Positions 8,801 through 29,105 of a stretch of 64,000 bases of DNA are shown here, piece by piece (the first letter of the stretch is position 1; each line of letters begins with the position of its first letter). Under the pieces are notes generated by a model, which had not been told where the DNA came from, did not search any database, and was given only the letters and a program-made list of their open reading frames with translations. Position numbers and translations under genes: made by a program. Location: positions 243,165 to 307,164 of the forward strand of contig MU006113.1 of assembly GCA_010093705.1 (NCBI GenBank), in the 5' to 3' direction. This DNA comes from Patellaria atrata CBS 101060 (taxonomy: Eukaryota).

Positions 8801-10427
8801 GGCCGAAATCGCCGTCCTCAAAGCCTCCCGAGCGGAGCAGTTTGCAAAAACCCAAGCAAGAGAAGCGGAGGAGACGTGTGCAACCATTATGGCTGAGCGC
8901 AAGCAGATGGATGCCACAATCGAGGACCTGCAGAGACAGACCCAGCGCTACGAAGAACGCATCGAGGATCTTGCTGCCGATTTAGACGGGGCGTTACAAG
9001 CCAAGAAACGGCTACAGAACGAGCTCGAAGACTACCGCTCTCAGCGCGCCATGGACATCGAGGACAAGGAGACCTCGATGGAACAGACTCGCAAAAAGTA
9101 TCAGTCTGAGCTCTCATCCCTCACGAACGAACTCGACATCGAGCGCGAGAACGTCCTCTTCGTACGCGAAGAGAACGGGCGCTTGAGAGAAGAGATCGAG
9201 GAACTCCGCGCTAAATGGGACGACGAGGTCATCAATTCGTCCACTTGGGCTAAGGAGAAGCAGAGACTGGAGATGACGCTCCAGGATATTTCTAACTCGA
9301 GAGATGAGGCAGCAAATGCGCATAATGAGGCGCAGAGCAAGATTGTTAATCTGCTGAGCCAAGTGAGGAGCTTGAGGGGTGCGGTTGACGATGCCACTGC
9401 TGAGCGGGATAATTTGCTCAAAGAGAGGAAATCCCTGGAATCTAGACTTATTGAAGCTAGTGACCGTCTCGAACAATTATCAACCGGTGATGGGCCTATG
9501 CGTAATGCTGCCGCTATGGATCGCGAACTGCTAGATCTTAAGGCTGGTTTGGCCCAGCAAGAGGATATTGCTGCCGCTGCGGTGGGCAAGATGAGACGCG
9601 CAGAAGCACTAGCCCAAGAGACCCAACGTGAAGTTGTCGCCGAGAGGGAGGCGAACGTCCAACTTCACAAAGAGAAAGCCGCAGTAGAGAAGAGTGTTAA
9701 GGACCTACAGCTCAGGCTAGTCGATCTCGAGACAAAGGGATATGCCTCCGGCCAAGGGAAGGACGTTCGCTTCCTACACGGGCGCATACAGGAGGTGAGT
9801 CCCCCAATCTACACCTCACATAAATCTCGACTTCACCAATACTGACCATCTCAACAGCTCGAAAAATCCCTCGAATCCCTAGAATCTCTCCGCACGCAAG
9901 AATCCCGCGCCGTCCGCACCGTCGACCGCACAGTCAAGGATCTGCAATCCCAGCTCGACCGCCGCGCAAAGGCAGCCCAGGACCTCGAATCGGACCTCCA
10001 GAAATCCCGCGACAAGATCTCCACCCTGTTGACCGCCATCGACGAACTGCAGTCCGAACACTCGGCCGCCGCCCTGGCCGCCAAGCGTGCAGAGCGAGAG
10101 CTGAGGGAGGAGCGCGAGACGAGGCTCAGAGTCGAGCGCGAACTCGAGGGCTGGAAGGGTCTCAGAGTCGAACGCGAATCGGCACGCATGGATCGGGAAT
10201 CCCTCGCTGGTGGTCTGCCGGGGGTAGGAGGCACGGGCAGTCTCCGCATGCGCGCTTTGAGTCCCGCGCCGGGTAATCTTGCTGTTCCTGCCCCGGGCAG
10301 CGATGCCGGCGATGCGAGGAGCAGGCGTGGAAGCTCCATCGGGGCTTCTCCACTCGGTGAGGGCGCCGGTGCAACGGGGAGTTTGAGGGGCTTGAGACGC
10401 GTTAGTGGCACGAAGGGTTTTTTGTGA
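2849..10427 (+). CDS. MYO1: Myosin type II heavy chain (cytokinetic ring myosin)
   Basis: Exons 2849-3307, 3366-3509, 3559-3743, 3800-9794, 9858-10427 with canonical introns. Motifs: GESGAGKT P-loop, [42 protein letters not shown] region and a very long coiled-coil tail. The symbol follows S. cerevisiae naming (myo2/myoB in other fungi). Confidence 0.97.
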
Positions 10428-11144
10428 GTGGCGTCGCTCTTGCTGGGGTCGGGTTGAAGGAGAGGAGAGATAGCAGGTTAGAAGGTGGTGGAGGGAGCGA
10501 CGGGGTGGAGAGTACCCGGAGGAAGGTGCGTTTCAGTGTCGATGAAGACGGGAGAGGCGTACGGGATGACCAAAACGAGATCCGAGAAGGAGTTCTCCGG
10601 GGTAATGGGGCGAAGAGGGCTGTTGTCATCCGGTCGGAGGCGTTTGTGTGATAGTTTTGTCTGTCTATTGGTTATGATGGATATTCAGTGATCTATGTCA
10701 GTCACCTACATGCATCGGGGGGTGTATCACGTGATGTCGGTTAGGATTAGGAGTCTTAATGCTAGATAATGTTAACAAGTTCAACTTCACGTTGTTCATG
10801 TTGGTAATGAGCTTGATCTGGGAGAACGCCAATGAGATTCCTATCATAAAGACTATAACCATTCACTTTATGAATCGATTAACACGAGCTACCACCTACC
10901 AAGACCCATCATGAAAGAAATTTGTATCTCTCCGGCCGTCTCTCTCCTCCTGCCTCCTCCCTCTCCCGCTGCTTATAATACATTTTCCGACCGTGAAAGA
11001 AAACAACCATCATATGCCCACTACCCCTTCGTCACCGATGGGCACTAATACCTCCGCTAATTAACCACCTCTGGGACTCAAGCTGTTATGCAAGTTCATA
11101 ACGTTTAACTTTGGGGATAGCTTAGTAACTACTTGGTTCATTGC

Positions 11145-12549
11145 TTACAACTCATCGCGTCCGGCGCTGGAGGCTGACTTCGCCGCCTTTGAGAGCTTGC
11201 TCGAGGCAGAGCTCGCGCTCGAAGCAGCGGCATCGGTGCTCTGCTTACCGGCTTTGCTTGCAGACTTGGAGACGCTAGAGGCGGACTTGGATGCCTGGAC
11301 AGAAGCGCTGGATGCAGACTTTGCAGCAAGGGACGAAGCACTGGATGCGGAATTGGAAGCACGTACAGACGCACTAGAGAGAGAAGCCGAAGCGCTCTGT
11401 GAGCCGAGACCGACCTGAGCTTTGATCCAATCGTAGTAGCCCCAAAAACCACTGGCAGCAGTCGCGGTAGCTTGAGCGTATTGGTTGCCGACATTGGAGG
11501 TAGCAGCACCATAGTAGCTAGAGGCGGAAGAGGCAGCGGTGTCACCGGTGAGCTGAGCGCGGTGCTTACGAGCTAGGGCGATGAGCTCATTACGCTTAGA
11601 ACCTTGAGGGACCTTGATGCCGTTCTTGTCGGCCCAGGCCTTGATTTGAGTGTCGCTCCAAGCATCGAGAAGGGCGTCGGTGAGGCTCTCTTGAGCAGAG
11701 GCGGCAGATGAAGTCGCAGAATCAAGGCTACCTTTCATTTGGAGATGAGCGAGACGCGCATTACGGCGGACAGAAGCAATAAGGCTATCACGAGTGCTTG
11801 GTTGGGGTGCAGGATAGCCACGTTCGTCGAGCCATGCCTTGAGGTCAGAATCAGACCAGCTCTCGTACAACCAATTACCAGGATAGGCTGCAGTTTCGCC
11901 GACCTTGTTCGCGGCGGATTGGTAATTTGAACGGACGGTTTGAAGAAGGCTATCGCGAGTACGGGGTTGGGGAACTGGAATGCCGTGACGATCACAGAAA
12001 GCCTTCAATTGAGAATCGGTCCAACTGGGTACGTTGGGTCAGCACATGCAATATATTGTAGAAGTTTGGGGATTACCTATCGAATATCCAATCCTGCACG
12101 CTGTGATAAGCTTCCGCGGCCTTGTCCTCCGTCTCATACCAGTACTGTTTCATTGTGTCAATAAGAGATTGGGTATTATCCTCTGCGCCAGCCTTTGCTT
12201 GATAGCCTTTCGCTGAAAGGTAACTCTGGAGGCGAGGGGTATCCCATTCTTGATAGGGCGTAGCAACTTTCGAATTCCAGTTGCTCTTGACTAGATTCTC
12301 AAGATCTTTCCTATCGGCGGGTTGGGGATAGGGAACGTTATGATCATCAAGCCATCGCTCAAGCTCGGTTTGATGCCACTTGTTGTATGCTTGGGGGATT
12401 GTTAATAAACGTTATATCGGGATGTGGAGTTGTTGAAGGAAAATAAATTGAGTTCGTAATTACTTACCAGCTTTACCAAACCAGGTGCTTGCAACAGCAG
12501 AGTCGGCAGCTAACGCCACGACAAGGGTGGAGAGGAAAGAGAACCTCAT
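11145..12549 (-). CDS. ish1: Ish1/Msc1 family stress-responsive nuclear-envelope protein
   Basis: Signal-peptide-like start MRFSFLSTLVVALAADSAVASTWFGK at 12549 followed by a GTAAGT donor. Repeated Ish1 motifs (WTDSQLKAFCDRHGIPVPQP, WSDSDLKAWLDERG, WSDTQIKAWADKNGIKVPQ). C-terminal RDEL ER-retention-like end. Confidence 0.88.
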
Positions 12550-13936
12550 GTTTACAATAACTTGAATCTATCAGTTAGGAAGAGGATGGATTCGAAATTC
12601 TCAAAGTTATCTGTAATGTTAGGATTTGAGTTGTAGAAAAAGAGGTTGTTGTGTGTTGAAAAAGAGGAGAGGGAGGAAGGTTTTGTGGGACTTGTGGGAT
12701 ACAAAAGTTTGAGCACGGTTGCCTGTGTTTTGTACATGACGTATTTGCTGTACAGCTCTTACCCCAGAAACGCGCTAGATCATCGATCGCTTGGCTGACC
12801 GCCAAATACCCGCCAAATCAGTTTACAACATTACGCCTAATGACAGTTTCTTAACCGTATTTTCACCCGTCAGTTAAGAAAAATACGTTACAAGTTTCCA
12901 GGTTCCTTTCATCCAAACTTTTGGAGCTTTCATGTACATGTAAGGCCATGTTTACAAAGGACTGATACTGAGGTGCATAGATCGAGGTGAACATGCGCTC
13001 TGTAGTCTATCCCACAGTCATCATTCGAGTTGAACTGGTCAATACTGTGAGATAGTTCTAATTCGGATGAAAAGCCTTAGAAAACACAAATGGGAAGCGT
13101 ACCTTACTAATCATGCTCTCGACAGCCTAACTCAATGGAAACCCCCGTCTTTTTTCATCGTAACTTGGGAAAATAACCTTGTGGCGCTGGACCCGTTTGC
13201 GGACAGTGACGGCATTCCTGGATCATGAACAGCCAAACAGCTAGAACGGGCTTCTGCAGCTCGCCAGCTCCTCTGTGTCCTCCTGCCATGAAAATATTTC
13301 AATTTGCATCATCTTGAAATCACGAGAGATGGCGTACCCAAGATCCTCTGTACTGAAAAAACAAAGCTATTCCATGACTTACCTTGCGCAAATCCGTGTA
13401 GAACTACCTGATATCGTGAGCTAGGAGACTCGAATTTAAGTGGAGGTAAGTTGTTGTTTCCATTGCATTTGCTGCTGTGGCTGGTGAGGTCATTATTGGA
13501 CGCCTCTGTCCGATTCATCACGGACGGGACGGGACACTCCTGAGATAGACTGAGCGTCTCCTCCTCACGGGACGGGAGTAACTCTGTGATTATACGGCGT
13601 TATCATTTCTTCTGTCGTGGCATTCCTGGACGAGACTGGACTTGGACAAGACGTCGGATCCAGTCTCCCTTAAGGTACCTTGGTCCTGTGACCACGTATC
13701 CCGATACTGATGCTGCATTTCCAACATTGGCTTATTTGCTGGTTACCCCGTGTTTGATGTCCTTGTCGCATCGGGCGCGGAAGATATCTCCATGCTCTGA
13801 TTGGTTGCATGGTGAGTAGTCATCCCGGGGCTCGGCCGACCGAACAGTTATGTTCGGATAGCCCGGCCGACAAATACTTCGGTTTACTTCCTCAAGTTAA
13901 GGTAATCTATTAACGCAGGAGTTAGTATTAAAGATC

Positions 13937-15135
13937 TTGAAAACACGGTATACTACGATATTCCAAAGTTCAGCCCACCAACAACACTGTCAGATATCGA
14001 GACTATCCTCAGAGCTATCAAACGCGATGCAGGAGCTGACAAGGCACGTATTGGATGTATTCCCTTCTTACATCATCAAGCTGACATGGGATTGTAGTGC
14101 CGCTGTATTGCGTCCTTTCGTATTTCTTGAGTTGCCGGGCGAGATCCGCAACATGATATACAGAGAGATTCTTGTCGATCTGAACCATAACATCATCATC
14201 TTCATAATGAATTACGCGGTTACTGGGAATGCTGATCAAACACTACATACCAATATTATGAAAACCTACCATCAAATTCACGAGAAGCTGAAAGTATCCT
14301 GTCGTCGGAAAACGTAATCGAATTTAGAGTGGTCCACAAATATATTCACGTTAAAGATGCGGTACCAATGGATCTCGGCTGCTCATGATGTATGGACAAC
14401 ATGGTCATTAACAACCCGGGATAGATGGCTAACGCATGCAGGAGACGTAAATAGAGTAGAAGAGTAGATTCTACAAAAGATAACTAGATGTATGGCATAG
14501 AACTGGAAACCAAGAACCGATGGCAATGAGAAAGAATAGATGCTTCTACAATTTCCTTTATATGGATTTTAGAGGTCTTAGCTTTCCTTTGTAAATAATA
14601 TCAGTGGACTAAGCCACTAGAGACTTCACCAAGCATATGAAGGCCCTGAAAAGGGATTTATGTATATAGGAGGTTGCGCCATAGCTTAAAGGCTGCATGC
14701 GCAGTATTGTAGGTAATGCAATACAATGGAAATAAAAATAAAAAAAAAAACCCGGGATTGATGGAGGGTTTGGCACATATCGAAAATGTTAAAATGGATT
14801 GGTGTTTTCCTTACGGAACGTGTCCTTACGATTGGAGTGACATCGCTGCTTGGTTCGATATCCTTCCTTCTTTGAGCATGATTGAGTTCTCTTTCTACTC
14901 TCGCGCGGCTCATGCAGCTGCGTTGAAGTTCTCGTGCACCTTTGAGGGTATGATCTCTCATACAACCCAACAGGTACGACGGCGCGTTAAGATTTCCTAG
15001 GCCCCCTCCAAGCAAAGTCTCGTGGGAGATGAAATTTGGTTTACTCACGTAGATGACAAAGCCATCGAGCGCATTGAAAAGAAGTGTGAATCGCTACGGG
15101 GAATGTACTATGATGACGAATACTTAGGGATATGA
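13937..15135 (+). pseudogene. Degenerate F-box-like ('FLxLPxEIRxxIY') fungal orphan-family gene
   Basis: PFVFLELPGEIRNMIYREIL. The expected TxxQIHREAxxILxxEN motif is split by a 1-nt frameshift near 14280 (QIH | REAESILSSENVIEF). Further broken frames follow to ~15135. Boundaries are approximate. Confidence 0.5.
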
Positions 15136-15394
15136 GTAGTCTGCTACCCCAACGTTTCGTCGTAGATCTGCCGCACTTGGTTCGTTCCATTTGATCTAGA
15201 CCCCTGTTCATGGCTCAGGCCCTACACTCCTTCGAAATACCCCCTTTTCAACCTCCAAAAGTTCTTAGTCAAACAAGTCTGAAGTTTTCTGAAGGTCAAG
15301 TTCTACAATTTCATTCTGGAGTTTGCCTTTTCGTTTCTCAACTGCTTCTTCTGAACTAGCAGAGAGAGGGAGAGCATAAGCACCGGCTCTATTA

Positions 15395-17960
15395 GGGCTC
15401 TAAACTAGTTTGAAACAGGTGTTCGGAATGAGTGAATGTCAGATATTTGAGGAAGAATGTCTTATACCGCTAATCGAAGTAGCGCGTCTTATCCAGATCT
15501 CTATTGGGATATCTTTGTGTATTTCGTTGAACGTCTAAGCACATATCGATCGATTACAGAGGGCTGATTCGAGAAAGCCAGATATAAATGCCTTCAACTG
15601 TATCCAACGACGAGCAAATCGATCTTAAATTAGTTTGAAAATAGTTCGAGGAGCACGATAGGAAGAGGAGTCTATCGGCCTTATTAGGTACAGTGGGTGA
15701 AAGTCCCGAATAGGAAATTCAGGCAATGTCCATCAAACGTCTGAGGAATGTAATCGGTTTAAAACTAGTTGTGAACTATGGCATAGTTCTAAAGGGAGGT
15801 GAGAATGGGAAGAGATCTCAGTGAACAAAGTAGCACCTTGGATGCAGTATCCCAATTAGGAAATTTTCACAGCTTTCGTCGAACGTCCATACAAGACGAA
15901 CCAGTTTCGAACCGAAACTGGTTAGAGGGACATGATGGGTATGGTTTTATAAGAAGAGAGGGAGTATACCCTTTACACCTACTCTAGAGGATCAAGTACA
16001 CACCACCCGGTAAGGACTATTATCATCGTTAAGTCAAACGGAATCCAGTTACAGACCGGTCTGAAACCTAGATAAGGAGCGAAGTGCGAACAGCCCTCTA
16101 TTAAAACCGAGTAAGAGAAGCTAACAGGGAGTCATATGCAATATCCCGGTCAGGAGATATCTACAATTTTCGTCGAACGTCTAGAGATATAACCATTTAG
16201 AATTATATCGGGAGAGGAATGATTAAAGAAAGTTATCTTCTCAAACAGTTAAACTCGAGTATGAGAACAGGGCCGATTTTCGTGGTATAATCTTACGGAA
16301 TATATAATCGAAAAGAGCTATCGTCGAACGTCTCTGAGAAGAAAGGCAGTGGTAGACTAGGAGACATGACAGTAGGAAAGAATACTCCGGTAATAGGAGT
16401 TAAGACGCAATAGTCTAATCAGGAGATACCAGTAACTCTTCGTCGAACGTCTATCGCGTCTAACGTGTTTAGACCTGATTGGGATCCGACTTGATGGTGC
16501 AGGAAATAGATCAAGTTACGTTACGGCCAAGTCATTATACTAACTACCCAATTAGCCAATATCTCTAATTTTCGTCGAACGTTAGATAACGTTTGCGAAG
16601 TCGGACGCAGTCACAGACCAGTCTGTAACCTGCTCAGAATGGTTAAGGGAAAGGGGAAGGAAGAATGTGACCCTATGGTTTATAGGTCATATTATCTCTC
16701 CTTTCCTGATCTGGCAATCTCTCTATTCCTGTTGAACGTCTACAAGCTCCAGACCAGTCTGTAACTGTTCCAGCAGTTATGGGTTTGAGGGAAAGAGAAG
16801 AGAAGGGAGACTCTGACCCTACCTTATAATTACACCATATCTCTATTTCCTAATTAGACATTCTCTCTACTTCTGTTGAACGCATACGAATTACAGACCG
16901 GTCTGTAAACTGTTCGAAACTAAGGTAAGGAGAAGATTGTGATTCTACCTTTCGGTTCACATATTTCAATCTTTCCCGATTAGGCAATCCCTCGGATTTC
17001 CGTCGAACGTCTACGAGAATTACAGACTAGTCTGAAGCTGTTAGAAACTGCATCATTCGGTTATAGAGGTAAGGAGGTGGGAAGACTACGGTATATTTAT
17101 ATCTCTATGTCCTGATTAGGCGATCTATCGGGATTTCCGTCAAACGTCTACGAACTACAGACCGGTCTGTAACTATTCAAACTGCGCTATGAGTTTAAAG
17201 GAGAGGGGAAGACCATGTTTTACACACATCCCTATTTCCTAATTAGGCAGTATCTCCGCTTTCGTCGAACGTCTACGAATTTCAGACCAGTGTGTAACGT
17301 TGTTCGAAACTGAGTAGAGTGGCTAAAGGATAGGGGAACACTATCGAACGTCTACGAACTACAGACCGGTCTGTAACGGTTCAAACTGCATTATGAGGCG
17401 AAGGGAGACTAGGGGAGGCCGAGAGGAGAAGACTGTGACCCTACGGTTTACACATATCTCTATCTCCTAATTAGTCAATCTCTCTACTTCCGTCGAACGT
17501 CTACGAATTTTAGACCGGTCTGAAACTGTTCAAACTGCGTTATATGGTTAATGAAAGGGGAAGACTAGCTTTCATATTTATCTCTATTTCCTGCTTAAGT
17601 AATCCCTCTACTTCTGTCGAAAGTCCACGAACTACAGACCAATCTGTAGACTGTTCGAAACTGAGTAGAGATTGAACCGCATCTCTAAACCAGTTTCAAA
17701 CCGATTAGAGTCCATAGACGTTCTACGAAAAAGCACAGATATTCCTAATCGGGCTATCGACAGTACAACATACCCTGTCCCCGACTTGTGTCTCCCTTTC
17801 AACGCGCCGGTTTTCGGACTGGTTCGAAACTGGATTCCGTTTCGGAAGACGTTCGATGAAACTTATCCGGTATTGCAAAATCGGGAAATAGAAATATTGG
17901 TAAACTGTAGGGTCATGGTCTCCCCTTCTACTCTCCTTACCCGGGTTAGAACTGTTATTT
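15395..17960. repeat. Degenerate tandem array of ~120-160 bp palindrome-containing units with terminal inversion
   Basis: The GAACGT-type core box recurs near 15529, 15735, 15881, 16036, 16175, 16326, 16445, 16577, 16734, 16878, 17005, 17142, 17267, 17346, 17495 and 17619 on the + strand. Reverse-complement copies lie near 17715-17731 and 17845-17861. Perfect palindrome TTACAGACCGGTCTGTAA at 16891-16908. Confidence 0.92.
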
Positions 17961-18141
17961 GAAAGCGAGTGGATCTCGCATAATATTTCTATCTGCCATA
18001 AGTACAACCCACGATCCCCACCCACTCCTCAATCGAAGAAGCAAATGTGCTCCCACCCATCCGCATGCATAAAGCCCCTCGCACCCATGCTCCCCATCAA
18101 TCCGTAAAATAATCATAAAATGGTATAATATTCGCCCTCCC

Positions 18142-20032
18142 TTAGAACAACCAAGAAACAAACGTCCTGTAAAACCAACCACCAGGTTTCTGCTTCTTCT
18201 GTGCCTTTCTTGCCAAGAACTCCTCTTCTTCCCTATCGATCTCCGCCTTGCCGGAATAGAAGTCCGCATTATGCGGCTTGACGCCTGGTTCTCTCGTCCA
18301 GAGCTTATAGCCGGCGAGCATGATGAGATAGACGGGAATACCGATGTAGCCGGTGATGAAGTTCTTGTAGTCAAAGTCGCCGTACGTCTTCGGGTTGTGC
18401 ACGAAGACATCGTAGTTCTTGGTGAGTGAGATGAGGATACAGAAGAAGAGAGCACCGTAAGAGCCTGCGATACCGAAGGGCGCGACGAACGGCATGGCGC
18501 TGTTCGGGATGTTTTGGGCGCGGCGGGCGCGGACGAAGTAGATGTGCGTGACAAGGATAGATATCCAAGTCAAACTGAATCGGAATTAGTATTTATGCTT
18601 ATCGACTAATTTTTGAGACGAAACTTACAGTCCAAAGATGGTGACCAGATTGACGAAATAGAGGAAGACAGTACGTGCGTCATCAGCAACGTTCATATAT
18701 GCGAGTAAGCAGAAGAGCGTGCTAAAAGCGAGAGCGTAAATGGGCACACCACGACGATCGGTGCGAGCGAAGATTCGGGGAGCCTTGTGTTCGATAGCAA
18801 GACCGTATAGTGTTCTGGTGGCGATGTAAAGATCACTGTTGGACGCACTGAAAACGAAGAGCAGGATACAGCCATTGATAAAGCCAGGAAGGCCGTCAAT
18901 ACCCGCAAGGGTGATGGCAACGACGAAAGGAGACGCGGAAGCTCCACTCTTAGCCTTGGTGGCGAAGGCCAGGTCCTCGGAATTATAGGGAACAATCATG
19001 CCGAGGAGGAAGACGGAAAGAACGTAGAAGAACAGAATTCGATAAAATGTCAGCTTGATCGCACGGGGGATGGTCTTGCGAGGGTTTTGAGCTTCTCCGA
19101 CAGTGACACCGACCAATTCGGTTCCAAGGTAAGCAAAGACGGCAGTTACCATGGAACTCCACAATCCCAAGAACTTTCCAGTGTCTCCTTGCTTGATATA
19201 TGGCTTGAACGCTCCTGGATTTTTCCAGTATCGGAAACCTTTCCTGTCTCCATCAGGGCCGCCACCAAGAGCAAGCACAAGAGAAAGGATGATAAGCCCA
19301 ATAATGGTAAGAACTTTCAAACTGGATAGCCAGAACTCGAGTTCTCCGAAGAAGCGGATACCAAAGTAATTGATGCAGACAATAACAATCAAGAAGACAG
19401 TAATGAATACTCCGGGATTGACATCGTCTGGGTGAACCCAATACTGAATGACCAAGGCTGCAGCTGTCAATTGATTCGGGGTCACAATGATGTACTTGAA
19501 CCAATACGACTAGAGCCATGTTAGTGAAAGTTTTAGGAGATATGAATAGGGGTAAGGACTAACATAACCAAGGGCGAAACCGAGAGCTGGATCACAGAAT
19601 CTGACAGCATAACCGGAGAAACCGGATCCAAGGGGTAACCAAGCAGCCATTTCACCAAGAGCGGACATGACCAAGTAGACGATGAAGCCGACGATACCGT
19701 ACGAGATAAGAATAGATGCGGGTCTATCAGTTTGTCAGTTAAGTGTTTAGAAGACCATTATATGCGGAAAGTGCTCACCCAGCTTTAGCTAGAGCAGCAC
19801 CAGTCCCAATAATGAGACCAGTTCCAATAGCACCTCCGATTGCAATCATAGTAATGTGACGCGATTTCAGTCCGCGATGAAGGTTGGTATTAGGCTCAAG
19901 GTGGTGCTCCCCGGGCATTTCATGGTTAACATATTCTGGATCTGGTTGATATTGACCCTTCTCATCTACTACACGTTCGGGACTATTGTCGCCCAGCGAG
20001 GAGCTTTCCCTCTTTCTACTCCAAATTGCCAT
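18142..20032 (-). CDS. DIP5: Yeast amino acid transporter (APC/YAT) family permease, Dip5-like
   Basis: [77 protein letters not shown]. Four exons joined by canonical introns. Confidence 0.9.
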
Positions 20033-22166
20033 GTTGGCGGAATTTGCTTTGGTCTATCAGAGGAAGGTATGCGAAGGTAAGACAAGCTTTCGGTAGATGT
20101 TGATAAAGAAGGCGGGGAAGAAATCCAGAAACACGCAACCGGTCGATGCGTATCGTGATCTTAGCACTCTTGAGTCTCCAATAGTAAGATACCTTAACGA
20201 AGTTCGGGAGCTATCGAGTCAATGGTGATCAAGCTGGAGATGGGCTTGATCAAGCACTCTCCAAGCGGGACCTGAGCCTTGTGGTTTGCGCCTCAGCTGA
20301 CGGTATTCCAATCGTATTGAAGAACCTTCCACCAAGTGACAGACTCAAGCTCACAAGGCAAGAAAGTCAAGGCTCAGTAACAGAAGGAAAGGAAAAGGTT
20401 CAGCTCTTTGAGGGGACAGCCAGGATTTTAAGTATTGGGATCGGGGAAGGCGATGACCACGGGCATACAGTAGTACAGTACCGATCTCCCTTCCACCACC
20501 AGCACTACCGACTAAGGTAGAACCAGAACTACCCAGGGTCAAAGCTCCATCGCACAGGTAAAATCGGCATTGCGCCCCCTGGATTCCCCTCCAGCGACGC
20601 CTTGGGCTTAGCCGCAAAGTGAGCCGAGCAAGCTGTACTGTACGAGATAAACAAATTCCTTCAAATCTGTGATTTTGCACCCCAAAATTCCCCAATCTTT
20701 TCCCTTGACAGTGCCAAGTGCGCTCACACGACATAGCCCTCACACCTACCGCATCAGGCTTAGATTATTTCATAACAATCGTAAAACCAAACGGCGGGGC
20801 GGAGGCTTATTACTCTCAATAAATGTGCTAACTTGTTATGGAACGCCTCACCGTATGCCCAGACCGGACCAAGGCAGCCGAGAGTGGCCGGCATCTTGAG
20901 GAATGATAAGAGTCGAAAGAACTCAACGAGGAGCATTCTCCAACTTTGGTGTCCATCGAGTGTACTGATATTGAACAGCTTCGAGGTTTGATCCTTCATA
21001 TCTTTCTTGTCTCTGATGACCTGAGACGAGTTTGACTCGAGAGCCCTCGGCGCGGTCAAAAAAAGTTCTTATCACGTTAGAACTGCACAGAATTTGCTTG
21101 CTGCTTATCTTGACCGGTGAAAAAAGATCCTCCCTTTTGTCTTATACAAATCATCGCCGCTGGGACTTGTCTTATTATGTCAAAAACGCAAGAAAATAGG
21201 AACAGGCCACGGCTATGGCCATGACCCAGGCCACCAGTCCCCAGAGAATATGCTGTAAGCTGAGGAGAACTTCGAGAAGCCTGGACCCCAGGGTTTGCAT
21301 CCTCCCCCAGCTGTCTGCATTCCTGCAAGATATCCCAGCTGCTCGATCAAGAAAATATGCCGTACCTTACTACACGACAAGCCCCGATATTTGAACCGAT
21401 GTACGACTTATCGAGGGAATCGCCAAGTGGATATCAAACGGCTCTACCTCAGAGGAATCGAGCACTTGACCACACATCTCAGCACGGTGAAAAGAAGAAT
21501 TTAACACTTGAAACTAAGGCAAGATATGCACCGACAGTACCTTACGCTTCACAAACTACTGTACAGTATGATCATACGTTCTCTTAAGGTAAAAACTAAC
21601 CTCAGCCTCCCCGCACCCGCTAAAAGTTAGCACACACTCGCTTCAGGAAACCTTCTTTGCAGTACGTACTGCACTTTCAACGGACGCTCGAAAAAGCCGT
21701 CCCGGAGCAATCGCGAAAACCTACATTATTGAGGCAATGGAACCCAAAATGGAATCATCAAATGCAGACTACAAGTGCTAATGACAATCTGGCCCCATGT
21801 CTTCCCCACTATCAGAATCAACATAACGTCGAAATCCCGCTCACCTGGTCCGTCAGCAGTTGGCCTTATCCGGCCCGCGGATAACCGCATTTATCACCTC
21901 GGAACAGAGATCGAGCACGTGGCCAAGGTAGGTACTCCTGATATTCGGACCAAATTAACTTGGAAGATATAGTACAGTAGCTTACCATTATTCTGTTTGA
22001 TACCTCAGCACGTCATGTTAATATCAACATCATTCACGCCATAACTTGCTCAATTGAAAGGCAGAAGTAGGTATTAAGCTTTTTCCTGTCCTGCAATTGT
22101 GCCTTTGTTAAGTAGTGGGAGCGTAAAATATCTAAGGTAAACTCGATGATGATTCTTATTTTTCTA

Positions 22167-22247
22167 CCCCTTCTTTTCTTTTCCTTTCTTTTCTTTCTTT
22201 TCTTTCTTTTCTTTCTTTTCTTTCTTTTCTTTCTTTTCTTTCTCTTT
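22167..22247 (+). repeat. Polypyrimidine microsatellite (TTTTCTTTC)n
   Basis: About 6-7 direct copies of TTTTCTTTC read directly from the sequence. Confidence 0.9.
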
Positions 22248-22329
22248 GATTGATTTTTATTTTTCAAGTAAATTTTTAGTAGCCAGAAGAATATTTACGG
22301 CTGCTGATTTTGCAATCTGGCTCCAGCAA

Positions 22330-23400
22330 CGATCCCGTCACCGTTCAATTGATATCCAGCACAGTCACTATACAATAGAAACACTCTCTATATAACGATT
22401 TCGTATTGCTAGGGCCACGATTGATAAGAAGATTTCTAGAGTGCGCACAGGAAAACACCACGAAGGCTGTTCTAATATCTCCGAGTCTTTATACTAGTTT
22501 CGTCCATTTACGCCGCCGAAGTCAAAACAGAGTGGTGTGGGTGGATCAGTTTTGTATAAGCCAGAGTGACAAGAATGAAGTCTCACGATCAGGTTTGTAT
22601 AAGGAAAGAAGTGTACGTAAGATCAAAGGGCTGTGTTTGTCTTGAGAGGAGGCGCCGAAGGGACTCGACTTGCAGTGCAGCTCTCAAAGGATTTTTCCTC
22701 CCTGCAATGGTTCTGGAGTTTGGATGTTTCAAGAGACCTGGTTATTCCGCTCCACGGATCAATTTTCAATATGAGAATAATACTATGCAGCGCGATTGCT
22801 TTTTCAACGCCAATGAATGGATGCATGAATGTCTACTACATGTTGTCCTACCGTATCCATGGACCAATCTCGAAGCGATACAGAAATCTGCTACTTCCAG
22901 ACGCCAGACGCCAAAACCAATTCGAGTAGACTTATTTAATCTCGTTTTGCAAGACTTGGATCTAAAAACTATAGACCCAAGAAATAAAATCCTCGGTCTA
23001 TTTAGTCTTCCCAAAGAAACGCAACCGTACCAGTTCTCGAGTGTAAGGTGATTCAATAAAGGGGACATGTACGGCATAGCGCTTAATTTCGTAACCACTA
23101 AAGAATTGAAAGAGAAGTATTATTCTTATTCAATATTACTAAGCAGATCGGTGAGACACAATTGTCTATTACATTAGTATATTCCCTTTTATCTAACTAA
23201 CTCGACTAAATGTCGCAGTTCGCATAACCGATGGACATTTGATATTCCAGGTCAGCCAAATTTCAAGCCGCTTGATTAATAGCTTCCTCCAACTCTGGGG
23301 CTGATTCTCGCCAAGGTTCTGGTATTTAATCGTTCGATAGTGAAAGTACGCATTCGGTTTGATTGACTGTAGCAGCTCCACGCCATTCAGGAAAGTGGCC
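22330..23400 (+). pseudogene. Heterokaryon-incompatibility (HET) domain pseudogene
   Basis: ISPSLYTSFVHLRRRSQNRVVWVDQFCISQSDKNE matches HET 'L..LR.....LWIDAICINQ.D..E'. In another frame, LKTIDPRNKILGLFSL matches 'TDPRDKIY.L.GL'. Frames are broken by stops and frameshifts; boundaries are approximate. Confidence 0.7.
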
Positions 23401-23487
23401 GGTAATTACCAGTCAAATATGGTTTTGTAGATGCATTTAGAGGTACGCTTTTGGAATGCCCTTCAAATATAAGTTGACCTCCTCTGT

Positions 23488-24186
23488 TTTGGTTTTTTTT
23501 TTTTTAAATCCATTGTATTGCGTTATCTACAATACTGCGCATGCAGCCTCTTGGGCTATGGCGCTACTCTTCTATCTACATAAATCCCTATTCTAGGGCA
23601 ATAATATGTCTAGTGAGAGTGTCTGGGGATTGAAGCTCCCCAGTTGGTCAAACTTTGCAGTTTAATCCAAGCATTAGAAAAACTGAACCAACTCCACTAT
23701 ATCCTTTGCTCTTCAATTCCCTGCATTATATAGCGATCTAGTTTTTCCCCTATGTTCTATTTATTTTAATTTGGTTCTTGTTCTTCTTCATTGATTTCTC
23801 TTTTATGTAGCAGCCAGTTAGCTGTTGAGATTTGTGTACTGTGTAAGTATTGGAAAAGTACTTCTTTGCCCTTCTCTGTACAAAAGAGTTTTATTAATGT
23901 TATTCTTGACTTTAGCTGCTTCTCCATGATTTTTCGTTCCTTGGAGTAATGTTTGCAGTGAAGAATCAGATGTCTTGGGGTTTGGATAAACCTGCAGTCT
24001 CCAAAACATTTCCCTTCAGTATCCTTTCCAATTCTCTTAAGGTATGACTTGAAGAAGCCTGCTCCATTCTTCAGCTGAAAGAATGCTGCTTGAGTCCTCT
24101 TTGGATATTTTGGGATTGATGATTTGGTTGAAATGAGATTGCTGCTCTATACACTTGGGTGTAATGCTTCCCTTGTCTTCTAGGGT
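23488..24186 (-). mobile_element. 5'-truncated non-LTR retrotransposon (Tad1-like LINE), 3' end of ORF2 plus 3' UTR and poly(A)
   Basis: The minus frame reads TQAAFFQLKNGAGFFKSYLKRIGKDTEGKCFGDCRFIQTPRHLILHCKHYSKERKIM...FQYLHSTQIST, the LINE C-terminal CCHC knuckle. T13 run at 23493-23505 is the poly(A) tail. Flanking direct repeats TTGACCTCCTCTGT (23474-23487) and TTGACATCCTCTGT (24187-24200). Confidence 0.88.
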
Positions 24187-24789
24187 TTGACATCCTCTGT
24201 GCCGCAGCATAAAGTTGATTTAAAAATGTTGGTGGTCAAAGCTCAAACTAATCTGATTGATTGATCCTCAAGATAGGTGGATTGAGCCCACTGCAGAGGC
24301 TATTTTCAGTTACCCGAAGAACATGCATACTGTATTACGACGTCAGTTGTAAGAGATCAGATAGTCCATGAGTGTGAAACATGCCCGCTCTACGCATGCG
24401 TGTAGAACCCGAGCCCCTCCTGAATGGTCAGTTCCTCTAGTATTTCTAGAGTATCGCCAAGTCTCAGTTCGGTAGATATTGTTCTACCAGGAATATATAT
24501 TATGCTTTCCCCAGAGTTGGAAACACAGCATCTGCATACTTGTGTAGCTCGATTGTAACACCCGAGTTAATACACATCCTTTCAATAAATTAGTAAGATC
24601 ACAATCAGAGTTTGATAAACTCTCTCAGTCTACCGCCGCCCTCTAGTTCTATATTTATGTCCAGCGGGTTCCAGGCAATTAGAATTCCTCTCTCCGTCGG
24701 TTCTATCACTGCACGTCGTCTAGAAACAGTCTCTTTCTCTGAATACTTGTCTCTCTATAAAGCACTCTTGAGTTTTCAAGCCCAACCAG

Positions 24790-26015
24790 ATGGGATCCCA
24801 ATTTCAACATGAATATCCAGCTCTGCATAACTCCCCGAGCGCAGCAAAGCAGATAACCATACTTCTTGTATTTGAGATATTTGCTATAATCGCTATTATC
24901 TTGAGGCTCTGGGCTCGAAGGATAAAGAAGATCTCTTTGGTATTCAACGATTACGTCTTATTGTGTGCTCTATTCTTCTTAACTGTAGCACTGGCGGTAG
25001 TCGGCTTCGTGTGTAAGCTCTTCCTAATAGCTAGCTGGCACTCCTTATTATCTAGATACTAATACCTCGAGAAAACCACAGCCGTCTTTTGGGCTGGTTC
25101 GGGCCAGCATATTAGAGATGTTGAACCGGGCCTCCGGAACCGCGTTCACATTACCTTTAGGGCAGGCCAAGTTCTTTGGGCTGCCGCAAATACCAGCGTC
25201 AGGTTGTCGATCCTCCACCTCTATCTCACTATCTTTCCCAGTCGCGTTTTCCGCAATGCATGTTACACTGTTATGATTGTTTGCATTTCCTTCTTCATCT
25301 CCGTCTTCTTGATAACGTTTCTGATGTGCCGTCCCGTTCAATTCAACTGGGATAGAACAATTCCTGGAGGTACTTGCGGAAACAGAATGGCAGGGTACAA
25401 TGCCACCTCTGCTACGAACCTTGTCATCGACTTTTTGGTCGTGACGATGCCGACGCCGCTGTTATGCGGTTTACACTTGCCAATTACAAAGAAAATACCG
25501 ATTATAATAATGTTTAGCTTGGGATATGTGTAAGTATTCTGCTTCTCTGGTGTCCTAAGGTATAGCCCCGTAATCTTATAATTTACTTGAGTATCATCTT
25601 TGCATTAATGGACTTGGTATTGTACTTTCGAGTCGATCTTATCTCAGACTACTGACATCAATCATATTTAAAACCCCACAGTATCTGCATAATCTCCCTA
25701 CTTCGCACCGTATACATCGCCAATATCGACCTCGCAGATTTCACCTACGCATCCGCTGACCTCGCAATCTGGTCTTTCCTCGAGCCGGCCCTCGGCGTCG
25801 TAAACGCCTCGCTTCCCGTGCTTCGTCCCGTGCTCGTTCGTATATCTGCTTCGCCAACGTTTACTTGGGCGCGGACTGCGATTTTTTCTTCTCGCCGCAC
25901 TAGTGTCGAGGATAGCGGGGGGACTAAATGGGGTAGTGGAAGTAGAGGGGAGGGCAGGGAGTTCAAGATATTGGTGGATTCTGTTGAACGGCCGTGCACC
26001 TTTGACAGTGTGTGA
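24790..26015 (+). CDS. PTH11-like / fungal rhodopsin-family integral membrane protein (no CFEM domain seen)
   Basis: Three exons splice in frame. Motifs: LRLWARRIKK...FNDY, SVRLSILHLYLTIF, CRPVQFNWDRTIPGGTC, NLVIDFLVVTMP, IWSFLEPALGVVNASLPVLRP. Confidence 0.85.
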
Positions 26016-26754
26016 GAGGTTGGGGAAGTGGGTATGGTAGAGAGGGAATATGATGAGAGCGCGAGAGATCAGAATGGGAGCAGGAATGGCGATGGAAATA
26101 GGGAGAGTGATATCCAGAATACAAACCTTGGCAGTGGACGCGGAGGAGAGGAGAGTGAGACGAGAATGATCTGCTCTATAGATATAATGTTAATCTATGC
26201 GGGGTTTCTAGGGGTAATGGAATACATGTTTAGCATTCGATGATAACGTATCTCGACTAGGCGGTTCTCAGATCAAGGTGTCACGTTCACTTAAGACGTT
26301 TTGCTGTCGAGGATTAGAGTTTGTACATAATTCCTTTATTGTAGAAATACTGGTTTTATAGTATTCTAGACGTCTTTGAGACTGTGCATCTTCTTAACTT
26401 ACGATCTTGTTCCGCAACTTCAGTCTAAATTTAGAGAGAAGTGGATCCCGTAACAACACCAATAGGGGTTTTAACTTCCCACTCTGGTGGAAAGATTAGA
26501 GTCAAAGGTATACCGGCTGTTAGAAACTTACAGCGGAGTAGACGGGGGCTTGTATGAATGAACTTCCCATGGCTTACCGCAATCATGGCCAAGATGAACA
26601 GGGTTTCCTAAATAAAGTTAGCTCGTTACAATGCTGATAGAACTTGACCCATGTCCGTCTAATATCTTAGCAGAAGCAAATTAAGGTAGTCAACGGAGCT
26701 ACTCTCCGCACCTTCTCCCTGACAGCGAAGGTTCCCGTCTTACAAGTCAATAAG

Positions 26755-27881
26755 ATGCCACTGATCTCAAAGGTAAATCTGAACCAGAAGGTACTGGCAA
26801 ACTTCAAGCGTGACAGTGAAAGGTTCATGACTCTAGCGCCGGAAGGTAACCTTCAAGGACTGCTCCAAAAATATTCTCGTATTTATGCTGCGGCCATAGA
26901 GAGACGTAAGGAACGGAATCCTGAGGATGGTGAAAGTGGGTGACCTACATTTAAGTGTAGTAGAATCCACTGATATGTCTTTAGGGAATGTAGAACGTCC
27001 AACTCCTCCAATCAAGAGTGAAACGTGCTTAGGAATCATCCGTCGGCCATTTGCCCAGGAAGTTCACGAAGCGCTTGGGTTTGAAGGCCACGAGACTCTG
27101 GACATAGCAGGACCGCAGTCTGTCCTTGACAAAGGAAAAAAGTTACATAATTATGGAACCACCGTCACGTTGATAGACCGTAACGTTGTTGTCAAAGCTG
27201 GCTGCGACCTCGATCTGGCGGAGGCTTTGATGATGGATCATATCAGCCAAAACACCCACGACATTCCCTTGCTAAAGCATTTGGGCTCTGTCACCAGCCA
27301 ACGGATGACTTATATCTTCATGAGCTCCATTCCAGGGAAATCCCTACGGGAACCATGGCCTACGCTTGAGAAAGAACAAAAGCTGGCCCTTCGCGATCAA
27401 CTTAGCCAAATTTTCCGACTTTAAGGCAATTACCATTATTGCTCTACGGGATTGGAGGGGGAAGTTCCTCAATTTGTAAAGACACAAGACGGAACATGCG
27501 GTACAGTTCTGATTCTGTGGAAACACAACACGAGTTCAACAAGTTTCTCCTCTCGACGGTGAAGCCACGATACTCCAGAACGTACGTCGAATTTGTAAGA
27601 GAGAAATGCTTGGAAACACACCAACGCATAGTTCTAACTCATGGAGACCTTGCACCAAGGAACATTTTGGTGAGGAATGAAGAAGATCGCATTCGCATCA
27701 CTGGGTTCGTAGACTGGGAACTGTCTGGTAATTATCTGGAGTATTGGGAGTTCGTTAAGTTACTAAATACTGTGTCTTCCATTGAAAATGATGATTGGTG
27801 TTTATTTCTGCCCGAGGACGGATTGGAAGTCACCCACGCCACTGGGCGGTCGGTGCTATTATAGACATGATGATATCATGA
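26755..27881 (+). pseudogene. APH/choline-kinase-like phosphotransferase, frameshifted
   Basis: VVVKAG, EALMMDHI, YIFMSSIPGKSL, LTHGDLAPRNILV and FVDWELSG are spread over ORFs 26755-26943, 26927-27424 and 27439-27864. Frame changes occur near 26940, 27420 and 27820 without intron signals. Confidence 0.75.
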
Positions 27882-29105
27882 GAGCTATTCGAGCCCAGTT
27901 GCTCGAAGACAGTCACTTATCCACGGGGACGTGTGCATCCCCCAATACAGTTTAGAACCCTGGAGTCAAGTGAATCGTCCTGATGCAATCACTCTTGGAT
28001 TAGACCCTACATTTGGCGCAGCTTCAATAACTAGAATAGAGGGATTTCCATCTTCAATAAACGGTTTGCAAGCACAAGGCAAGCAGTTCCTCCACCAGCT
28101 CATATAACAATGATGACATCATGATAGTAATTATTCATCCTAAATGATCGTTTTGAATACATGACGAGGTCGCTGCTTCAGCACGAACCATGCACTGAAA
28201 TAATCCAAAAACTGGCCAAAGGAAGCGTGATATGAGAAGATACATCAGCGATCGATGAACGCGCAACGCACAGCGATATAGGATCAATACCGTCTGCAAC
28301 ACACCGAGACAGAAATTGAAAGGTACTGTGTAAGTATGGTTACTGGCATCCATTGGAATAGCATTTCTACGCTTTTACTAAGCTAAAAAGTATCCGCGCA
28401 CCTCAGGATCTTGGTTGAGTCTTGTAGAAGGACGGTAAGGTTCATGCTGACAGCAGGACATATCGGGTAAGCGAATCAGATAGAAGATCGTAGGGTTGGT
28501 AGTAAGGAGATATGTTGTGTGAGGAGTGCCGAAAGAGACACGATTGTTCTATATACAACCTTGCCTTATACAGTACGGGAAACGCTAAGGTAAGATACGA
28601 ATAGGCAAGAATAAGGTATCAATACCATAGCGAAAAAAGTACGGGTATTGGGTTACTTTAATACTTCCCACCTTACGGGACGTATAGAACTCCTATCATA
28701 GAGCAATCAATAATCTCCGATCATTAGCATACCCGTCCGATCAACGTCTTCATATGAGAATTGACCCAATCCAGTTCCAACTCAAGAATGGTGACCTCCT
28801 AAATGAAAAACTGGCTGTATTCTTACCCTGAACCATGCCTATAGAATGCGATACTATCGACTACTCGGATGCTCCATGTACTGTTACTACTGTACTGAAC
28901 ATTAAGCGACCGCGAAAAGCAACCGAATCAGTACCTAAACCAAAACAACACTGGTTTCCCCGGCAACGAACACGAACAACACCGTATCGCACCCGGGACT
29001 TATATTCCATGCCTTCGATTCTCATATCGTGGTTGTGCAACCTCTGATTGTGATCCCAGAGCCAGAGTGTGATTGCTTCGGTGATGTTGTCCTGGTATGC
29101 CTGCA

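Follow-up and report, generated by a model that had tools for sequence, protein, structure and literature searches.

A 2.6-kb non-coding array of 18 diverged units, each ~125-150 bp long, lies within the 64-kb stretch of a Patellaria atrata chromosome analysed here (termed the window). Within its units an asymmetric 13-nt box, TCGTCGAACGTCT, and the symmetry of a palindromic site behind it (the dyad) have been kept while the rest of the unit drifts, which suggests the docking of a putative factor. A preliminary description of this DNA had counted, by eye, ~16-18 palindrome-bearing repeat units, one of them truncated, in a fungal chromosome and within an interval devoid of any credible gene. 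That the array is real is confirmed by a profile of the units (nhmmer), which yields 18 matches with E <= 2.2e-5, all within 15440-17949, and none outside the array in the window even at E < 10. The truncated unit proves to be 79 bp long, no credible open reading frame was found in the array, and an exon of the adjacent permease gene is 100% identical to a Patellaria atrata protein named Dip5 at NCBI, which bears out the fungal origin. The array and its units were thus correctly recognized; what was missed is that the final pair of units (17675-17960) runs the other way, so that the array consists of 16 direct units (15395-17667) and 2 inverted units that meet tail to tail at ~17677. The features are as follows:

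13901..15137, plus strand: left neighbour, a probable gene (an inferred gene model) with a weak 2EXR-family match (Pfam E 0.013, below the cut-off)
15355..15420, plus strand: box-less remnant unit, read from the sequence, with a purine tract, CTCTATTAGGG and the palindrome AAACTAGTTT (palindrome core 15402-15411)
15395..16625, plus strand: eight decayed direct units, u01-u08 (nhmmer 20-57 bits), with box 12-mers starting at 15524, 15730, 15876, 16034, 16170, 16321, 16440 and 16572; the boxes at 15730 and 16034 are degenerate
16626..17667, plus strand: eight better-kept direct units, u09-u16 (nhmmer 67-96 bits; u14, 33 bits), with box 12-mers starting at 16729, 16873, 17000, 17137, 17262, 17341, 17490 and 17614
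16888..16911, no strand: example of a dyad, the perfect 18-bp palindrome TTACAGACCGGTCTGTAA, centred ~27 nt after the box start
17316-17394, plus strand: truncated unit u14 (79 bp, 33 bits)
17644..17710, no strand: hinge, an imperfect inverted repeat at the tail-to-tail junction (centre ~17677; arms of 20 nt, 75% complementary)
17675-17805, minus strand: inverted unit i2, box at 17717-17728
17806-17960, minus strand: inverted unit i1, box at 17848-17859
18142..20053, minus strand: right neighbour, a Dip5-like amino-acid permease (Pfam AA_permease, E 4.5e-82 and 1.8e-14)

All five repeat families found in the whole window fall inside the array, and a repeat search of the region returns 22 direct-repeat families, the 19-nt box region occurring in 15 copies. 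With up to two mismatches allowed, the 12-mer TCGTCGAACGTC occurs 19 times in the window versus 4.87 +/- 2.17 times in shuffled sequences (none of 100 shuffles reaching 19), and 12 of these 19 occurrences fall between 15524 and 17859. Tandem Repeats Finder is blind to the array, whose copies have diverged too far for it: it gives three rows for the region, none of them in the array. The units are old. Those that had been called 'good' are better kept than the decayed ones, yet the best nine are only 52-88% identical to one another in pairwise comparisons (61-88% within u09-u16). The polarity noted earlier is borne out by the profile scores, which are 67-96 bits for full-length units at 16638-17666 (33 for the truncated unit) versus 20-57 bits at 15440-16639; the two inverted units give minus-strand matches of 49 and 81 bits. 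Boxes within the array are spaced 79-206 bp apart, and the box-less remnant, as read from the sequence, pushes the left edge to ~15355. The hinge folds as DNA with -16.7 kcal/mol (z -2.71), which 2 of 200 shuffles equal. A three-unit higher-order period is hinted at by tail types and by the spacings 389, 390 and 351, and is weakly backed by the identity matrix.

Comparison of the box with the rest of the unit supports strongly non-uniform conservation. The box window CGTCGAACGTCT, with at most one mismatch, is kept in six of nine decayed units, whereas 12-mer windows that do not overlap it are kept in 0.10 units on average and in 2 at most. Simulations of uniform decay (2000 per identity level) peaked at 2, 4 and 6 of 9 at 50, 60 and 70% identity, respectively, and 7 of 9 was never reached; thus the test speaks against uniform divergence and for the earlier view that short boxes were kept amid drift. 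As in a satellite with a protein-binding box (i.e., of the CENP-B-box type), the box is conserved above the monomer background. A weaker motif, TTTCCYRATTAGG, lies upstream of it. Immunity to RIP as the cause of box retention was rejected on the basis of windows that lack CpA and TpG: there are 47 such windows among 125, and of these 47 just 8 match anywhere in the old units, with 7 of them overlapping the box. As to RIP decay of the units themselves, the ratio of transitions to transversions is 69:72 in old and 131:102 in young units; the RIP dinucleotide indices (0.61-0.76 in the array versus 1.16-1.18 in the flanks) look RIP-like but are confounded by the repeated motifs.

The palindrome after the box varies in sequence between units and beats shuffles (<= 0.05) in 9 of 18 of them; its symmetry, which had been described as retained, is maintained although both arms have changed. 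The array contains 13 homologous dyads. Among these 13--related copies that were chosen by their recognizable cores--84.6% of cells are paired versus 77.9 +/- 1.9 in shuffles (1 of 500 being as high), and cells with two-sided changes number 12 versus 6.0 +/- 1.7 (1 of 500); slid controls of the test give 21-41% pairing. Five of nine dyad pairs have changed on both sides. Four dyads read ACTAGT (ATTAGT in one), and most read ACCGGT or ACCAGT. One two-sided change, CG to TA at the centre, can come from deamination on both strands without selection.

The array begins ~220 bp past the stop codon of the left gene and ends ~180 bp short of the permease stop codon. The two flanking genes are probably convergent, with the array filling the gap between their 3' ends; this is probable rather than certain because the left gene model is weak, given its marginal Pfam match, an in-frame stop at 14998-15000 and an interruption by a SINE-like insertion. 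The plus-strand units adjoin the plus-strand gene and the minus-strand units the minus-strand gene, an arrangement that the preliminary description had overlooked. Since each set of units points like the convergent gene next to it, any action of the array may depend on orientation.

A metagenome scan shows the 13-mer to be the conserved core of short arrays at four distinct loci of a Lecanoromycete-like (i.e., lichen-type) fungus, arrays that came to light because the box itself was the query; these loci contain 12 exact 12-mers in 42.9 kb. Here too, as read from the sequence, a dyad, GGAGTGCTCC, follows the box, with its centre ~25 nt after the box start; a palindrome that beats shuffles is present in only 1 of 14 units of this fungus. 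Beyond the 13-mer, no similarity between these arrays and that of the window was shown: a box-less profile of the 40 upstream bases of the lichen-fungus units found no match among the window's units, and two shared 8-mers, GTTTACAC and GGGAAGAC, upstream of one lichen-fungus box were dropped because ~2 such matches would be expected by chance, on a rough estimate. In the same scan, 28 of 36 loci hold unrelated repeats, high-GC, otherwise tandem or coding, in which the 12-mer occurs by chance (e.g., L004, L017, L019, L029 and L011); locus L011 is a coding coincidence, in which GTCGAACGTCTC reads VERL. Viral contigs scanned for the box gave 0 matches, and a scan of prokaryote genomes for 13-mer pairs gave six chance matches, all in high-GC bacteria or archaea. 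Unit orientation is that of the gene with the abutting 3' end in both window blocks and in the lichen-fungus locus L003, and probably in L008, which adjoins an ORF without a Pfam match; in L030b two of three units agree with the abutting gene, and in L022 and L030a the units are opposite. The window and lichen-fungus blocks together thus show a weak tendency to agreement, in roughly 4-5 of 7.

We tentatively favor, as a possible reading, that this is a selected array of putative docking sites for a sequence-specific factor, and that it possibly serves as a polar barrier or terminator. The array would then consist of old, slowly turning-over tandem non-coding units, each a candidate docking module with three parts: the 13-nt box, a two-fold symmetric site ~27 nt after the box start, and the weaker upstream motif. 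Unequal exchange near the hinge would probably generate new units, which would decay in the direction of the left end, while purifying selection would hold the box and the dyad symmetry and let the rest drift. We infer that the constraint acts through a DNA-binding protein, in which case the array might separate two transcription units as a barrier or terminator, or act as a replication-fork barrier. A broader proposal, which we regard as a long way from likely, is that box and dyad constitute an ancient cis-element of filamentous ascomycetes, that one conserved putative factor would recognize in two or more classes (the Dothideomycetes and the Lecanoromycetes), and placed in orientation-dependent arrays behind genes, where it would stop transcription or forks from entering the neighbouring gene; if true, it would do in Pol II regions what terminator and fork-barrier arrays do in rDNA. 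Promoters, centromeres and transposons apart, few non-coding DNA elements have, to our knowledge, been described in filamentous fungi. Here a nucleosome-sized repeat has kept a 13-base box and the symmetry of a palindrome while time erased the rest of the unit, and the box may serve in a distant fungal class too. Should a factor bind the box, it would provide a handle on a new DNA-binding system and direct tests of convergent-gene insulation in compact fungal genomes; should the box instead be a mobile-element relic, an unusual conversion of transposon into satellite would have been documented.

The constraint might act on RNA rather than on DNA: the units would be transcribed (e.g., by read-through), with box and hairpin serving processing, 3'-end formation or the production of small-RNA precursors. 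On either side, the units indeed run in the direction of the gene upstream of them and begin where 3' UTRs should end; the dyad tolerates T-G combinations (six U-G cells), which pair on the sense strand only; and folding predicts the dyad hairpin in the majority of the units folded. Whole units, however, fold no better than shuffles, all 200 of which are beaten by only 1 of 9 sense and 0 of 9 antisense units (sense z-scores -2.72, 0.04, -0.40, 0.57, -0.31, -0.19, -0.55, 0.12 and -1.33); a search of the region against Rfam 15 (including ribozymes, snoRNAs and miRNAs) gave a sole match, to mir-2985, far below threshold (24 bits versus 68 required), and a tRNA search found none; and perfect palindromes without a loop are no less suited to a dimeric DNA site than to an RNA hairpin. 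We consider constraint on RNA unlikely, and the multi-hairpin ncRNA precursor offered as a candidate in the preliminary description gains no support from folding, in contrast to three other parts of its interpretation, namely non-uniform conservation, a retained palindrome and the lack of a described family. On the last point, no match was found in Rfam at the four lichen-fungus loci, a literature search for the box string gave incidental occurrences only and no described family, and among the papers listed for Patellaria atrata together with repeat terms none mentions the species.

Two further explanations were considered. In one, the array is the relic of a mobile element (e.g., one of the foldback type, or a satellite that descends from one), its long and short inverted arms being made of subrepeats, and the boxes are former transposase-binding sites without a host function now. 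Consistent with such an origin are the 16 direct units facing 2 inverted ones with almost no spacer, the greater degeneracy of the outer units, the dispersal of the lichen-fungus counterpart over at least four loci, one of which (L030) has plus and minus units tail to tail (5852+, 6001-, 6135-), and a 46-nt hairpin module that is present in one and absent from the other of two near-identical contigs. Transposable elements are, moreover, a known source of tandem repeats, according to the available portion of a review (PMC6947457). Against it, k-mer depth in two runs (X1 and X2) of one sample, both of which look like DNA and are possibly the source of the assembly, indicates a single copy (510 in the array versus 436-438 in the flanks and 10,000-28,000 in a true dispersed repeat 1 kb away); no further copy of the array was found in the 64 kb, no transposase or Rep gene beside any of the five loci examined, and, by eye, no target-site duplication at the array ends; and in a neutral relic the box would be expected to go at the same pace as the remainder of the unit, whereas it is retained. 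We give this explanation a minor share of the probability. (A run from another organism, X3, gives no cover on the array and covers fragments of the permease only.) In the other, which we consider the more doubtful, the array is a lineage-specific minisatellite, its box kept for some local reason or by an unusual mutational bias, and the lichen-fungus match is a 13-mer coincidence. The box-less control, which revealed no sequence common to both sets of arrays, and the chance matches in the metagenome and prokaryote scans fit this account. Yet in each of the two fungi the units have diverged around the 13-mer, which is their best-conserved block, the arrays are intergenic with a similar period, and a dyad follows the box at a similar distance; the odds of such a coincidence are put at ~1 in 1000, a rough estimate and not a computed value.

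Alpha-satellite monomers are nucleosome-sized tandem units that diverge freely save for the protein-binding CENP-B box present in many of them. The array likewise combines nucleosome-sized tandem units and free divergence apart from one short box; it differs in being non-centromeric and confined to one 2.6-kb block among closely spaced genes, in the sequence of its box, for which we know of no CENP-B-like protein, and in the second, dyad-symmetric site that accompanies the box. Polar terminator or fork-barrier arrays, made of repeated protein-binding boxes that act according to their orientation, include the Sal-box/TTF-I sites behind mouse rDNA and, in fission yeast, the Reb1 Ter sites and RTS1, which pairs repeats with a purine-rich region. 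Repeated boxes downstream of a transcription unit are a shared feature, as is the purine-rich region of RTS1, which the array units also have; by contrast, the array lies outside rDNA or a mating-type region, its units are much longer, its sequence is different, and its binding and polarity are putative. Foldback-type transposons resemble it in their inverted arms of tandem subrepeats with a more degenerate outer end. Such terminal arms are present here, very unequal in length (16 versus 2 units); multiple copies with target-site duplications are absent from the 64 kb, the depth is that of a single copy, and the box is retained to a greater extent than neutral decay would predict.

CRISPR arrays and plasmid iterons share with the array a short conserved element recurring at regular spacing, and differ in that spacing (~60-70 bp or ~22 bp versus 119-206 bp); the array, moreover, has a eukaryotic host and no cas or rep genes. 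A CRISPR array, which calls for near-identical repeats of 24-48 nt and for unique spacers of about that length between them, was rejected inasmuch as only ~13 nt are conserved and the stretches between boxes align among units; being homologous to one another, they are not unique spacers. An iteron or partition-site array (17-22 bp repeats at helical spacing beside rep/par) is at odds with the spacing and with the neighbours, a permease and a 2EXR-like ORF. A MADS (Mcm1/SRF) array, whose site motif is CC(A/T)6GG, was likewise rejected: two such sites lie in the array, and the window has 5 versus 3.85 expected. Arrays of TFIIIC B-box-type sites act as boundaries in yeasts. A B-box cluster or tRNA-derived element was dismissed, GGTTCGANNCC occurring with one mismatch in 2 of 18 units (14 in the window versus 12.63 expected). 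The array is reminiscent of both the B-box and the Pichia pastoris GC-ACS (core TYGAAC) in that its box contains TCGAAC and some unit tails read GGTTCGAAAC; the fragments tested for the GC-ACS presumably correspond to tRNA T-arm sequence. In the portion of the source available (PMC3945215), arrays of GC-ACS-type sites act as origins in yeasts and the tested fragments of this origin motif read GGAATYGAACCC. As far as that portion goes, those fragments are not the array box and only TCGAAC is common to both, so the GC-ACS was rejected. By eye, tandem Helitron ends, in which a hairpin lies 10-12 nt ahead of a 3' CTRR and TC opens the next element, fit poorly: CTRR follows the dyad in three of the eight better-kept direct units (u10, u13 and u16), never then followed by TC, and the remaining ones read CTGC or differ at this position. 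Nor did inspection by eye give a consistent fit to a hammerhead core (CUGAUGA with GAAA), a box C/D snoRNA layout or intron branch and splice sites. The MATE elements and AMA1 replicator of Aspergillus nidulans are long and non-coding, with an inverted structure and clustered ACTAGT-type 'Spe motifs'. By description, the array is similar in being long, non-coding and inverted, with clustered palindromes that are of the ACTAGT type in four dyads, and different in that most of its dyads read ACCGGT or ACCAGT.

Related units follow one another from 15395 to 17960 of the window, as read from the sequence, and an nhmmer profile built from the alignment of array units made in this analysis yielded 18 matches (E ≤ 2.2e-5), all within 15440-17949, and none in the rest of the 64-kb window, even at E < 10. 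The array was not detected by Tandem Repeats Finder; a repeat search returned 22 direct-repeat families there, including a 19-nt region in 15 copies that contains the box (an asymmetric 13-nt motif kept in the units), and all repeat families detected in the 64-kb window fall in this region. With up to two mismatches allowed, the window contains 19 occurrences of the 12-mer TCGTCGAACGTC (4.87 ± 2.17 in shuffles), 12 of them in the array. The array of palindrome-bearing units reported in the preliminary description stands, as does its truncated unit; what had been overlooked is the inversion of the last two units, at a hinge whose DNA fold reaches -16.7 kcal/mol (z = -2.71).

Features of the array and its surroundings (window coordinates)
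farther left of the left neighbour: Ish1 gene
end at about 15137, + strand: left neighbour, a probable gene (open reading frame; weak 2EXR match, E 0.013)
to about 15355: remnant unit without the box, leftmost extension of the array (read from the sequence)
+ strand: 16 direct units (profile and repeat searches)
79 bp: truncated unit, u14
centre near 17677: hinge, an imperfect inverted repeat where the + and - groups meet tail to tail (DNA fold)
17675-17960, - strand: last two units, inverted (profile and repeat searches)
gene end at 18142, - strand: right neighbour, an amino-acid permease (open reading frame and Pfam)

Logan contigs from two runs of one sample span the array without differences, interrupted only at 17144-17172 and 17348-17376, stretches common to two units; the assembly may derive from these runs, so they are not independent proof. 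In k-mer depth the array (510) differs little from its flanks (436-438) and hence lacks near-identical copies in the rest of that genome; the depth of a true dispersed repeat at 14384-14825 is 10,000-28,000. The left neighbour gene contains a SINE-like insertion some 320 bp long (14427-14750), with a poly(A) run at its end and the 14-bp duplication CCCGGGAT(A/T)GATGG on either side; at 25-60 times the k-mer depth of the flanks, this insertion is a high-copy dispersed repeat.

Among the nine best units pairwise identity is just 52-88%; the array as a whole is therefore old, not a homogenised satellite. When the decayed units were scored against the consensus of the better ones, they could be aligned around the box and its preceding motif but nowhere else. 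In an alignment-independent count, CGTCGAACGTCT (at most one mismatch) is kept in six of the nine decayed units, whereas 12-mer windows not overlapping it are kept in a mean of 0.10 (maximum 2); simulations of uniform decay (2000 per level) gave maxima of 2, 4 and 6 at 50, 60 and 70% identity. This bears out the earlier proposal of a short box kept amid drift, and the uniform divergence that would mark a neutral minisatellite is not seen. Repeat-induced point mutation (RIP) usually acts on CpA/TpG. Survival of the box through absence of these dinucleotides is ruled out: 47 of 125 windows lack them, and those kept overlap the box, with one exception (a single match in the decayed units). The substitution spectrum has no clear transition excess (transitions:transversions 69:72 in the old units), and the dinucleotide indices of the array, RIP-like in appearance, are confounded by its repeated motifs.

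The dyad after the box (perfect form TTACAGACCGGTCTGTAA) is likewise under constraint. It beats shuffles at 0.05 in half of the units (9/18), and its sequence differs in several, such as u03 with its 11-bp stem. Among 13 dyads aligned without gaps--related copies, chosen by recognisable cores--84.6% of cells are paired (77.9 ± 1.9 in shuffles; 21-41% in slid controls). In these same chosen, related dyads both sides have changed in five of nine pairs and in 12 cells (6.0 ± 1.7 in shuffles), with the caveat that the central CG-to-TA change among them can come from deamination on both strands.

A function at the RNA level is unlikely. Folded whole, the nine units examined are no more stable than shuffles: on the sense strand one of them has z = -2.72 and the others -1.33 to 0.57, and none of the nine antisense folds beats all shuffles. 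Folding thus lends no support to the multi-hairpin ncRNA precursor suggested earlier. An Rfam scan of the array region gave one match, far below threshold, in agreement with the initial impression that no described family is involved, and a tRNA search of the region found none.

A search of a metagenome collection for pairs of exact boxes spaced by 107-137 nt gave 36 loci, 28 of which were rejected as unrelated repeats or coding sequence with the 12-mer present by chance. The box pattern can arise by chance in genes: at locus L011 (737-874) the same 15-mer occurs twice in apparent coding sequence (LVERLT, IVERLS). The remaining eight, on contigs with a common accession prefix, reduce to four distinct loci. 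Their contigs are fungal (genes for Vac14, an ABC transporter, GST, APC10, isocitrate dehydrogenase and SDA1), and the nearest named protein to the SDA1 reading frame is from the lichen fungus Pleopsidium flavum (89%). These contigs carry short intergenic arrays of 2-4 units in which the box is better preserved than any other block; it is present as 12 exact 12-mers over 42.9 kb and is extended to TCGTCGAACGTCTCAG. In most cases GGAGTGCTCC comes next, with its centre ~25 nt past the box start (~27 nt in the window), and one locus likewise has + and - units tail to tail. Judged from these sequences, the window array is probably related to the lichen-fungus arrays. Against a relationship count the failure of a profile made from the 40 bases before the lichen-fungus boxes to match any window unit, the strong palindrome in only one of 14 lichen-fungus units, and the retrieval of this family with the box itself. 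A lineage-specific minisatellite whose match elsewhere is coincidental seems to us the least probable reading. A 13-mer pair scan gave six chance matches in prokaryote genomes, and no box pair was found in the viral contigs scanned.

Two lichen-fungus contigs, 98-99% identical, differ by a 46-nt block (L034 5828-5873; L022 ~5870). The block corresponds precisely to a single CATCATC...GATGATG hairpin module where the box array ends, which suggests that such modules are gained or lost whole. At L030 (~2400-2790) an AT-rich, MITE-like insertion with long terminal inverted repeats adjoins a two-unit box array upstream of the APC10 gene.

If the left gene model holds, the window array occupies the gap between two convergent 3' ends, starting ~220 bp past the left stop codon and ending ~180 bp short of the permease stop codon. 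The left model carries an in-frame stop and the SINE-like insertion; one permease exon is 100% identical to the NCBI-named Dip5 protein of Patellaria atrata (Dothideomycete). The + units face the + gene and the - units the - gene. In both window blocks and at lichen-fungus locus L003, units run in the direction of the gene that adjoins them by its 3' end; they probably do so at L008, and two of three units do at L030b. At L022 and L030a they run opposite. Such agreement across loci is a weak trend. Elsewhere, the Ish1 gene contains a 33-bp tandem repeat (11281-11375, 2.9 copies), and a TTCTT microsatellite (16 copies) lies at 22171-22247.

Because the array is old, keeps a constrained box and dyad, is inverted at a hairpin hinge and lies between two probably convergent genes, we tentatively read it as a putative array of docking sites at which a sequence-specific factor would act on the DNA, possibly in a polar manner. 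The nearest analogues are satellites that carry a protein-binding box and the polar terminator arrays downstream of rDNA; both resemble the array in possible mode of action, not in membership. A neutral transposon relic would be expected to lose the box at the pace of the rest of the unit, and is doubtful.

Among known motifs, a MADS site occurs at chance, a tRNA B-box fits only 2 of 18 units and is no commoner than chance across the window, and the Pichia GC-rich origin motif has only TCGAAC in common with the box. The word tRNA is absent from the main text of the Pichia pastoris origin paper (PMC3945215); by eye, the tested 125-bp GC-rich origin fragments of its Table S4 (n = 12) resemble tRNA genes, and GGAATYGAACCC within them resembles a T-arm or B-box.
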